Below are positions 24,027-50,715 of a stretch of DNA of 64,000 nt, one piece after another. The notes under the pieces were generated by a model. That model was given only the letters and a program-made list of their open reading frames with translations. It did no database searches and had not been told where the DNA came from. The DNA comes from Octopus vulgaris (taxonomy: Eukaryota). The stretch is taken from the NCBI GenBank assembly GCA_951406725.2, contig OX597818.1:72664001-72728000 (forward strand), written 5' to 3'. The number at the start of each line of letters is the position of its first letter. Within the stretch, counting starts at the first letter, position 1. The position numbers were made by a program, and so were the translations under genes.

Positions 24027-25583
<1,557 letters not shown>

Positions 25584-31318: not shown

Positions 31319-32633
31319 ATTCCTTAATTCGGATTTGCAAACACTGAAAGTAGGAGCATACCCTTTTGGCGAATTTTCACCTCAGAAGATCCGCTCAGAC
31401 TATCAGTGCCAACAAATTCAAAATATGTAAGCGAAGAATTTCTGCCCTCCCCTTTCCACCCACGTGGTCTAATCTAGCAAACACCATAATTTTATCGGTG
31501 AAAACCGAAGCATTAAACAGAGAGAAATGAATTATAATTTCAACAATTGAGGGTAAAATTAATTAATTATTATCAATTTCACCAAGTATTCAGTATGTAA
31601 AGGGACCATTTAAGGCGAATTCAAAATATTACATTTTATAAAGGGCTTAGTAAAATAAATTACTTTGCCACATACTTTGTATTTGGCTGATCTAGAAACG
31701 TACGTTCTCAAATAACCTTTGCATTTGTGATTTTTTTAATGTTTTTACCCCCATACCTTCGTGGGCTGTTCTGAGTAAGCACTATCTGAGAGAAATTTTC
31801 TGTAAGTATTAGAATTCGGCTAAAAAACTTTTTTGGGCTGCTATTTCTAATGAGTTCAGTATGTGGCAAAGTAATTTATTTTACTAAGCCCTTTATAAAA
31901 TGTAATATTTTGAATTCGCCTTAAATGGTCCCTTTACATACTGAATACTTGGTGAAATTGATTAATAATTAATTAATTTTACCCTCAATTGTTGAAATTA
32001 TAATTCATTTCTCTCTGTTTAATGCTTCGGTTTTCACCGATAAAATTATGGTGTTTGCTAGATTAGACCACGTGGGTGGAAAGGGGAGGGCAGAAATTCT
32101 TCGCTTGCATATTTTGAATTTGTTGGCACTGATAGTCTGAGCGGATCTTCTGAGGTGAAAATTCGCCAAAAGGGTATGCTCCATACCTGAGTAAGCACTA
32201 TCTGAGAGAAATTTTCTTTAAGTATTAGAATTCGGCTAAAAAAATTTTTTGGGGCTGCTATTTCTAATGAGTTCAGTATGTGGCAAAGTAATTTATTTTA
32301 CTAAGCCCTTTATAAAATGTAATATTTTGAATTCGCCTTAAATGGTCCCTTTACATACTGAATACTTGATGAAATTGATTAATAATTAATTAATTTTACC
32401 CTCAATTGTTGAAATTATAATTCATTTCTCTCTGTTTAATGCTTCGGTTTTCACCGATAAAATTATGGTGTTTGCTAGATTAGACCACGTGGGTGGAAAG
32501 GGGAGGGCAGAAATTCTTCGCTTGCATATTTTGAATTTGTTGGCACTGATAGTCTGAGCGGATCTTCTGAGGTGAAAATTCGCCAAAAGGGTATGCTCCT
32601 ACTTTCAGTGTTTGCAAATCCGAATTAAGGAAT

Positions 32634-45372: not shown

Positions 45373-46383
45373 TCAAATAGTATACGTGGATTGACGTATA
45401 TCCATAAGTATGTACAATGAGCGCTTAGATCGGTTTCCCACTAAAAATACGACTTGAGGTGTTGAAATTGCTTATTCAATGCGGCTAGAAGATAAGTGGC
45501 GACAAAAGTTTTGCTTCTCTGTCTTTAAGAAGTCACTGGACCAATAACAGCCAACACGCAAATCTGTAGCAAACGATATCACACTCCCTTAGAAAAGGAA
45601 AGTACACTGAATGTAATTCTACATACTATATATACAAAGCAGTGGAGTGTCTATGAATGGAACATATTTTATCAGAGATCTACCATACGTAGGGTTACAA
45701 AATGAAATCGTTTAATGTGAAACAAAGGAATTCTCTGTGTATTGGTTTTATCTGTTACTAACAACAACAGTCAACATCTGTCTAAATAATCCCCTTACGT
45801 CTTAGAACATTTCACAAATATTTTACTGAAGTGGATTCTGTAACAATTTACTTGAAATGTGAAAGAGAAGGCTGCCGGTATAACGCGAGCCTATACTTAT
45901 AAAATGCTACATAAGCCGTATGTATCAACATTGCTGAACATACACAATGATGCAATGCAGAATATATTGCATGTCTGAGAGTACCTAATCTTTCTAAATT
46001 CTATTTTGGTACATAGACATAGATAGGTAGTAGATATTCTGTGCCTTTATGTGTGTACGTTTAGTTTGATGTGTAGGTGTGTGTATAATTAGTTCAACTA
46101 TTCTATACGATAAATGTATGAAAATCTACATGTATCTCAATCTATATTTGTAATCCATTTCACACCGCCAGGACTCGCACCGTAACAAGCACCTGCACGT
46201 ACACCGTCACATACACGTGCACACATACATATTGATCCACACTCTACATACCGCATGCACATTAGAATATACATTCTATATGTAAGTATATGGCGTAGTG
46301 GTTAAGAGCGCAGGCTAAGGCGTAGTGGTTAAGAGCGTGGGCTAATAACCCCAAGATTCCGAGTTCGATTCCAGTCAGTGACT

Positions 46384-46685: not shown

Positions 46686-46731
46686 GACATCTGATGAAGG
46701 CTGGAGGGTATATCAGCCGAAACGTTGTGTT
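46686..46731 (+). ncRNA. Minimal type I hammerhead ribozyme
   Basis: GACAT-CTGATGA-AGGCTG..CAGCC-GAAA-CG-TT/GTGTT; stem III is reduced to the ACGT palindrome. Confidence 0.8.
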
Positions 46732-48957: not shown

Positions 48958-48995
<38 letters not shown>

Positions 48996-49056
48996 TATCG
49001 GAAATATTAAATTTCTAAATATCTCATAGAGATATGTACAGTGGGGGGGGGGGCGA

Positions 49057-49282
49057 AGAGTAGCAGAAGCCTGCTAGCTGCAGATATCTGTCTCGACTTG
49101 GTGATCAGTGAATAAACTTCACTGATAATTATATATATATATTTACGAAGTCGAGACAGATATCTGCAGCTAGCAGGCTTCTGCTACTCTAGACCGATGA
49201 TGGGCAAAGACCCTGAAACATGCGTGTCTCTAGATGCAGGCCTAGCTGTTGGGGGTATTTGTCTCCCCTTCGTAAATATATA
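49057..49282. mobile_element. Inverted insertion of a circularly permuted hammerhead element of about 171 nt
   Basis: Inverted repeats 49057-49099/49148-49190 and 49136-49150/49268-49282. Confidence 0.8.
49188..49234 (+). ncRNA. Type I hammerhead ribozyme (CCGA core variant)
   Basis: TCTAGA-CCGATGA-TGGG..CCCT-GAAA-CATGCGTG-TC/TCTAGA, GUC site. Confidence 0.75.
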
Positions 49283-49387
49283 AGGACACAGGAAATGTGT
49301 CGAAGACACAGGAAGCGTCGATGCTTCCTAGGGCTAAACAGCGGTGAGGTAATCCCCTACTGTCACGTTAAAATGACAGTATACAAC

Positions 49388-49428
<41 letters not shown>

Positions 49429-49429
<1 letters not shown>

Positions 49430-50714
49430 GAGGGGCGTTCAATAAGTAATGCCCCTGACCCACTTCCCATACCAGTAGAGCAATGGACTTGGCACAGTTA
49501 TTAGTCTTTTTCTACATAGGAACCACTCAGAGTTAGGCATTTCACCCATCGTTTGATCCAGCTCTGGAGACCGTTTTTGTAAAAGACTCCAGCTTGGTCC
49601 TCCATCCACGACGTGACTTTAGAAATCAAGGCTGCATCATCTGGGAAATGCTTTCCTTTCAAAAACAACTTCATGGCTGGGAAGAGGTGAAAATCAGAGG
49701 GTGCAATGTCAGGAGAGTAGGGGGATGGAGGAGGAGTTCATAGCCGCACGCCTGTGCTTCTGATCTGGCGACACGCGAGTTGTGAACCGGAGCGTTGTCC
49801 TGCAGGAGGAGGATACCTTCGCTGATCTTGCCCCGCCTTTTGATTTTGATAGCTTCTCTTAATTTCCTCAAAAGTGAAGCATAATAGGCACCTGTAATTG
49901 TGGTACCCTTTGCCAGGAAATCTGTCATCACTACTCCGTCCTGGTCCCAGAAGACTGTGAGCATGACCTTGCCAGCAGAGGGCTGCACCCTTGTCTTCTT
50001 TGGAGGAGGTGAGTCACGGTGCTTCCACTGCATTGACTGGGCTTTGGTCTCTGGATCATAGTGATGAACCCAGGTTTCATCCTGTGTAATCAGTCTTTTG
50101 AAAAAGTTTGACTCATCTTGGTACGTCTCGAAATTCATCCTCGAGCATTCGACGCGTTCTTGCTTCTGGAAAAGTGTGAGCAGCCTAGGAATCCATCTGA
50201 CAGACACCTTTTGGATATGCAAATGGTCATGAATGATAGTTTCCACTGACCCGGTACTAATCTTGACCTCATGGGCTATTTGGCGAATAGTTATGCGTCG
50301 ATCTTCCAAAATGGCAGCCTCAACTTGACGGACAGATGCCTCATCAATGGCAGAAGTGGGGCGACCAGATCTGGGAGCTGTTTCCACAGAGTTCCGACCA
50401 TGTTTGAATTCAAGATGCCAGCGTTTTACAAGGTCATATGATGGGGCATCATCACCATAAGTTACTTTCATTTCATCAAAGTCTCCCGTGGTGTGCGTCC
50501 TTTCAAATACAAAAACCGGATCACTGCTCGACACTCAACAGGCTCCATTTCACACTTGATTCAGTTCAAACACCTGTAGATCAGAAACCATAAGCAGTTG
50601 AGAGCTGTAATTTGCCACCTAATCTATAAAGATATAAGTAATTGCACATGCAAAATTTCAACTAGATCAAACACCTGGAAGTGGGTCAGAGGCATTACTT
50701 ATTGAACGTCCCAC

Positions 50715-50715
<1 letters not shown>
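49429..50715 (-). mobile_element. Full-length mariner transposon (1287 bp), irritans-like
   Basis: TIRs of about 39 bp (CGAGGGGCGTTCAATAAGTAATGCCCCTGACCCACTTCC, 3 mismatches), TA target inside (TA)n, transposase on the minus strand. Confidence 0.95.
49501..50548 (-). pseudogene. Mariner DD34D transposase (about 349 aa) with two single-base frameshifts
   Basis: MEPVECRAVIRFL.., WIPRLL, ITQDETWV, QDNAPVH and YSPDIAPSD, with 34 residues between the second and third Asp after correction. Confidence 0.92.

Follow-up and report, generated by a model that had tools for sequence, protein, structure and literature searches.

A probable two-armed insertion of a hammerhead-bearing non-LTR retrozyme in the Octopus vulgaris genome and the Penelope-type footprint of its family

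The closest described relatives of the repeat analyzed here are the animal non-LTR retrozymes, for which circles have been proposed as templates and Penelope-like elements as helpers (PMC7229834), and the endonuclease-bearing Penelope-like elements; a Penelope origin of retrozymes has been argued as well (Li, Clavereau and Pollet 2026, 10.64898/2026.07.22.740005). According to the accessible portions of these and the following sources, insertions of Penelope-like elements are recognized by their inverted 5' copy, by a tail that is restricted to one end and by a bias toward (TA)n (PMC8557442). The Penelope enzyme, a predicted dimer, extends both target strands and has two internal start sites that bound the tail; hammerhead cleavage is not required (PMC11167929).

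Judged by its sequence features, the octopus repeat belongs to the animal non-LTR retrozymes and thus to a known kind of element. Its non-coding unit falls within the size range of the units of mussel (350-390 bp) and axolotl (330-350 bp) given in the accessible text of the published descriptions (Cervera and de la Pena 2020, PMC7229834; 10.64898/2026.07.22.740005), and it shares with them a single type I hammerhead per unit, a GC content below 50%, a highly paired predicted circle and, at the level of the octopus family, target duplications of more than 4 bp. The differences from these retrozymes, as far as they are described there, include the U4C core of the octopus subfamily, the predicted status of both the octopus ribozyme and the octopus circle, the mostly dispersed copies of 1-2 units with frequent inverted arms and, at the locus described below, the presence of a single hammerhead. 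The features held in common with insertions of endonuclease-bearing Penelope-like elements, again as portrayed in the available parts of the papers, comprise 5' truncation, partial tandems and an inverted 5' copy (PMC8557442, PMC11167929, PMC4209133), along with a one-sided tail, 3' ends fixed at two sites, targets that are AT-rich or (TA)n, and no pile-up of ends at the cut site. Unlike those elements, the octopus repeat is devoid of an ORF, has a tail of ~56 nt instead of 30-40, and carries a full type I hammerhead with a long stem I extension in place of their minimal motif.

The window, a stretch of 64,000 nucleotides from O. vulgaris (contig OX597818.1, positions 72,664,001 to 72,728,000 of the forward strand), contains a representative of this family at 48997-49393, bounded by (TA)n tracts. 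We read this locus, with a probability of about 0.86, as a single insertion with two arms and a truncated 5' end, derived from a non-coding hammerhead repeat of ~360 nt (a non-LTR retrozyme) that a borrowed Penelope-type reverse transcriptase-endonuclease likely wrote into (TA)n. Its structure, both unique junctions included, was read from the genome assembly and consists of the following parts.

48960-48996, no strand: left flank, (TA)n-rich, the likely target site
48997-49056, minus strand: outer part of the inverted arm, the 56-nt "tail" (unit positions 21-76, C run expanded), ending at the second fixed 3' end, S2
49057-49099, minus strand: inner part of the inverted arm, block A (unit positions ~128-170), 43 nt identical to the forward arm
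49098-49099, no strand: true inversion point between the arms, TT shared
49098-49393, plus strand: forward arm, 296 nt (unit position 78 to 356, then on to ~21), ending at the first fixed 3' end, S1
49098-49135, plus strand: "spacer", forward in the family, containing a hairpin and an ATCAGT hexamer
49136-49150, plus strand: B', reverse-complementary to B, which supplies the 5' strand of the helix closing the hammerhead domain
49162-49178, plus strand: 17-nt site of the kind targeted by a LINE family in other copies, empty here
49189-49233, plus strand: type I hammerhead motif
49234-49267, plus strand: block C, predicted partner of block A (stem I extension)
49268-49282, plus strand: block B, 3' strand of the closing helix
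49283-49393, plus strand: block D with predicted hairpins, ending at S1
49393-49428, no strand: right flank, (TA)18, beyond which lies an unrelated mariner element

The left arm is inverted and has an internal deletion: block A is joined directly to the 56-nt tail at a short ACTCT repeat, ~206 nt being absent between them. A shortened, hammerhead-less subfamily with A joined to the tail was considered and rejected, as this junction is unique in the genome to the locus itself. At the inversion point, four of five bases match across TT.GT; the arms are 98% complementary between 49057-49102 and 49145-49190, and the forward arm is 95.6% identical to the nearest fetched copies. The forward sequence amounts to less than one unit and includes only one hammerhead motif, and the microsatellite flanks render any target duplication unreadable. 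The adjoining (TA)n tract also hosts a mariner-type DNA transposon with terminal inverted repeats (49429-50715), whose ORF of 287 codons, on the minus strand at about 49674-50534, matches the Pfam family Transposase_1.

In the initial annotation, the segment 49057-49282 had been interpreted as two inverted fragments that close into a 171-nt circle. Its description of the blocks is accurate: the plus strand at 49148-49282 reads A (43 nt), the hammerhead motif, C and B; the minus strand from 49150 starts with the 15 nt of B and finishes with the 43 nt of A, both overlaps being exact; the arithmetic does give 171; and a type I hammerhead motif is present in the interval claimed for it. The 171-nt circle itself is refuted at the DNA level. 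The 2.8-Gb O. vulgaris genome was searched with 49057-49282 as the query, and 40 of 1518 candidates were scored; 39 of these 40, all elsewhere in the genome, span query positions 39-44 to 225-226 unbroken on a single strand, as was confirmed for all 28 that were fetched. Since 49098-49282 is unbroken on one strand in these 39 matches, the spacer is not inverted, and the stretch 49100-49150, taken for an inverted fragment, is forward and collinear with the rest of the unit. The AAG at 49148-49150 had been proposed as microhomology shared at the inversion junction; in the family, however, B' directly adjoins A, and the real junction lies at 49098-49099. The genome search for permuted copies found the reverse-spacer-to-A junction once, at the locus itself (up to 1 mismatch, 2.8 Gb), and the B-to-reverse-spacer junction nowhere in the genome. 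Block B is present twice because B' (49136-49150) and B (49268-49282) form an inverted repeat within the unit, closing a long stem around the hammerhead.

Copying of two fragments from a 171-nt circle (A-hammerhead-C-B-reverse spacer) accounts for the exact overlaps of 15 and 43 nt and for the sum of 171; against the junction counts, the forward spacer, the intrinsic covarying B/B' helix and the fact that block D and the tail belong to the insertion, it merits next to no credence. The unit measures 356-368 nt, other copies keep a fixed order of blocks, and the element extends beyond 49057-49282, taking in the inverted tail (48997-49056) on the left and block D (49283-49393) on the right. The statement that each fragment continues where the other ends fails for the A and B fragments but holds at S1, where the forward arm (49098-49393) stops and the inverted tail (48997-49056) begins. 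The suggestion of a circular or multimeric template likewise survives in part: such a template is likely for the ~360-nt unit and not for a 171-nt circle. The assignment to retrozyme-type elements also stands.

Within the unit, the blocks are arranged as tail, spacer, B', A, hammerhead, C, B and D, after which the tail recurs. The reference period is 356 nt, that of the L006 locus is 365-366 nt, and a tandem period of 364-368 nt was seen in all six loci examined (eight natural monomers, GC content 41-45%). Each unit carries one type I hammerhead motif, and the arrays reach about 3.5 units (L036). The exact hammerhead pattern has 192 matches in the genome, the reversed control has none, and the motif of the older subfamilies has 301. 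These older subfamilies (L153-L182) have periods of ~342-355 nt, and a canonical U4 core (CUGAUGA or CUGACGA), and the pair with which their stem II begins at its base is another one; this comparison shows that U4C either originated in the younger lineage or is confined to it. Two insertions, L006 (720-1801) and L035, combine units from different subfamilies that differ by 9%. Such mixtures are not accounted for by a single circle and suggest that the template was switched or that the multimer was mixed. A search for RNA records containing the sequence listed none. In four sequencing runs guessed to be RNA, for which no molecule ends are listed, contig depth over block D and the tail is far above that over the hammerhead. 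This contrast is uninformative because the older subfamilies share D and the tail and diverge around the hammerhead (the 301 matches).

In the motif at 49189-49233, stem I is formed by 49189-49193 and 49229-49233, the core CCGAUGA, a U4C variant, occupies 49194-49200, GAAA is found at 49215-49218, and the cut is predicted after 49228. Stem II has a U.U pair at its base, and stem III is short, with a palindromic loop. Axolotl HHR_Amex2 likewise has a short helix III and a U.U pair where helix II begins at its base; in the accessible text of its description, its cleavage is weak on its own and improves in the dimer (PMC7229834). Dimer action has been described for a short palindromic helix III (PMC4209133), and U4C lowers in vitro activity yet permits viroid infectivity (PMC3088659), both as reported in the available parts of those papers. 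In the octopus family, C4 replaces U4 in 99 of 101 copies, and core positions vary by 1.3%, versus 7.4% across the unit, in 101 hammerhead copies found by BLAST with three queries, two of which contained the motif. Counting conservation on motif-picked rows was discarded as circular; the BLAST-found copies are less biased. When the window was compared with Rfam, nothing reached the gathering threshold; at E <= 10 there were only hairpin-type chance matches, none of them to a hammerhead family. The Rfam miRNA matches in the window were rejected, as they reflect the fold-back.

The stretch 49057-49282 folds at z = -11.7, and 49135-49283 is predicted to form a rod tipped by the hammerhead. The eight natural monomers fold as circles with z values of -4.8 to -8.8 (30 shuffles each) and with 62-65% of their bases paired. 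By energy alone, a single hammerhead motif does not reach the active form in these predictions. Having only one hammerhead, the copy at this locus would not release a circle alone. For the analysis of covariation, 49 copies from 52 candidates were aligned, one per locus except for two from L006. In this alignment, 94.5% of the cells are paired, versus 28-50% for slid controls, and compensatory pairs are found in stem I (AU in 43 copies, GC in 6), stem II (GC in 27, AU in 21) and B/B' (UA in 32, CG in 11, GC in 3). The compensatory cells follow the subfamilies, so the number of events is small, and of five measures of the whole structure, two are no better than shuffles in the 49-copy alignment. 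In terms of the aligned copies, B/B' is a predicted built-in RNA helix of the unit with compensatory changes.

The insertion footprint was analyzed in 101 non-redundant loci, which remained after 21 duplicates had been dropped from the 122 family loci fetched, and which comprise 49 inverted and 52 simple copies. Among the simple copies, 46 of 52 end at S1 (27) or S2 (19) and the other 6 end elsewhere; S1 and S2 are accordingly two fixed 3' ends, about 56 nt apart, with the tail between them. The two arms end at opposite sites in 34 of the 35 scorable inverted insertions, the exception being L002, which has S2 twice; 14 of the 49 inverted loci, with one end outside both sites, were left unscored. 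Under independence with the 27:19 ratio, the probability of such pairing is 3.8e-10, a value calculated with site windows that were set after seeing the data. Target duplications of 13-14 bp are found in L003, L006, L035 and L070, and duplications of ~10-14 bp are visible at the family level outside microsatellites. The flanks are 78% AT, versus 64% further away, and a TA run occurs at the 3' end of 20 of the 52 simple copies. With AT-rich targets, target duplications, two fixed 3' ends and an inverted 5' arm, the family displays a Penelope-type footprint.

The predicted cut site is crossed by 106 of 151 arms, and one arm end lies within 5 nt of it, in a sample that is partly hammerhead-selected. 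In a D-anchored sample, which is not hammerhead-selected, the starts of 12 of 36 arms lie upstream of the cut, at unit positions 17-190, and the cut itself shows no pile-up. Parts belonging to the same insertion resemble each other more than they do the median other locus; this holds for 63 of 69 inverted pairs and for 58 of 63 tandem pairs. Tandem units have a median distance of 3.7% within a locus versus 9.8% to other loci, but only in 20 of 63 tandem pairs are the units at least as close to each other as to the nearest other locus.

The same footprint would be expected if the unit were no more than the terminal repeat (pLTR) belonging to an autonomous Penelope-like element, with the locus as its truncated end-piece. 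The comparison bearing on this alternative covered one Penelope-type family, an abundant and young one (L123-L152) with frames of up to 1200 codons, a pyrimidine-rich 3' region and (TA)n ends. That family carries an unrelated repeat with a minimal hammerhead-like motif, and among its 30 examined loci, of 12,515 candidates, no convincing sequence shared with the unit, and hence no helper, was detected. The 5' flanks of the 52 simple copies share adjacent sequence only where LINEs have inserted into the unit, a Penelope ORF (RT plus GIY-YIG) adjoins none of the 52 copies in this sample, and the arrays of ~3-3.5 units (L006, L034 and L036) have no ORF between their units. Three GIY-YIG-like ORF fragments located near copies, one of which belongs to the Penelope-type family examined (30 loci), are not joined to the unit. 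On this evidence, a terminal repeat of a larger element appears improbable.

Still less probable, by a small degree, is an origin of the fold-back as an assembly or library artefact or as a purely DNA-level rearrangement of a simple copy. Such an origin would be in keeping with the uniqueness of both junctions, the identity of the arms over 43 nt and the microsatellite flanks. However, the positions of the outer ends coincide exactly with S2 and S1, which is also the case in 33 other inverted insertions, and the left arm has a tail while the forward arm is without one, so that the left arm is not a fold-back copy of the forward arm.

If the locus is indeed a single two-armed retrozyme insertion, a Penelope-type enzyme would nick both strands of an AT-rich target, and reverse transcription would start internally on one RNA at both S1 and S2 (twin priming). 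The two cDNAs would then grow toward each other and be joined at a short microhomology, producing inverted arms with a tail at one end only. At this locus, the S1 cDNA would have run 296 nt through the hammerhead to unit position 78, and the S2 arm would consist of the tail followed by block A, with 206 nt lost either when the enzyme jumped on its template or by subsequent deletion within the palindrome. The likeness of the parts within an insertion (63 of 69 pairs) fits twin priming on one RNA but does not prove it. Arms that run past the cut site speak for an uncut multimer or a ~360-nt circle as the likely template, and against a cut linear monomer; within-locus similarity does not decide between circle and multimer.

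We lean slightly toward a broader interpretation, in which the opposite ends of 34 of 35 scored insertions would preserve in the genome how a Penelope-type enzyme, probably dimeric, primes both target strands from two internal positions on a single RNA, maybe a ~360-nt circle, with a U4C hammerhead tuned to stay uncut during copying. If true, priming at opposite sites would explain Penelope insertions that are inverted and tailed and would provide a short natural template for testing. The rule seen at the family level, with the two arms starting at opposite sites, links the two start sites seen in vitro (PMC11167929) to the inverted structures that the accessible text of PMC8557442 calls still unexplained, and it supports the proposed mobilisation of animal retrozymes by Penelope-like elements. 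A literature search, to which subscription papers were mostly external and which is thus a weak negative, returned nothing relevant on twin priming with inverted, tailed Penelope insertions. A search with the same coverage returned no paper on the octopus retrozyme family; the supplements of PMC7229834 may list related invertebrate repeats.

The unit is itself a target in the octopus genome. A LINE family inserts site-specifically at unit position ~142, just upstream of the hammerhead, with a duplication of ~13-17 bp (loci L183, at G000:C2:144685300-144692000, L184, L186-L189 and L190-L219). It is represented by a 5.4-kb form with an AP endonuclease, an RT and a zinc knuckle and by ORF1-only forms of ~1.65 kb. 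The unit follows 21 of the 30 top LINE 3' ends, two of the 30 (L198 and L213) are stacked on a second LINE, and three more LINE copies precede distant hammerhead-like motifs. Tx1 is a tentative label for this family; the comparison run on the LINE returned no Tx1 name, and the literature search found nothing relevant that paired Tx1 with a hammerhead.

The ATCAGT hexamer of the spacer lies 58 nt before 49162, and the same hexamer is found at -57 to -60 in 12 of 15 U2 genes. Comparison of the spacer with the U2 upstream regions gave a best ungapped match not above that of shuffles, only the position of the hexamer being in agreement; as a weak and post hoc suggestion, the hexamer might possibly be an snRNA-type promoter element. 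In 2 of the 15 U2 genes (L225 and L232), a sequence resembling the LINE 3' end (AATAAAG) is located directly upstream, replacing the usual upstream region.

Several other features were noted in the window. A second, unrelated hammerhead-like motif with a canonical core is located at 46691-46731, after (TAA)n, and is probably a stub of another Penelope-type family. Close to it, at 46292-46345, is a 27-bp duplicated tRNA-like head, probably of a SINE. The window further includes a (TAA)n tract of about 1.37 kb (24027-25396) and an exact-looking tandem duplication at 31771-32599, which consists of two 417-bp copies with 99% identity.
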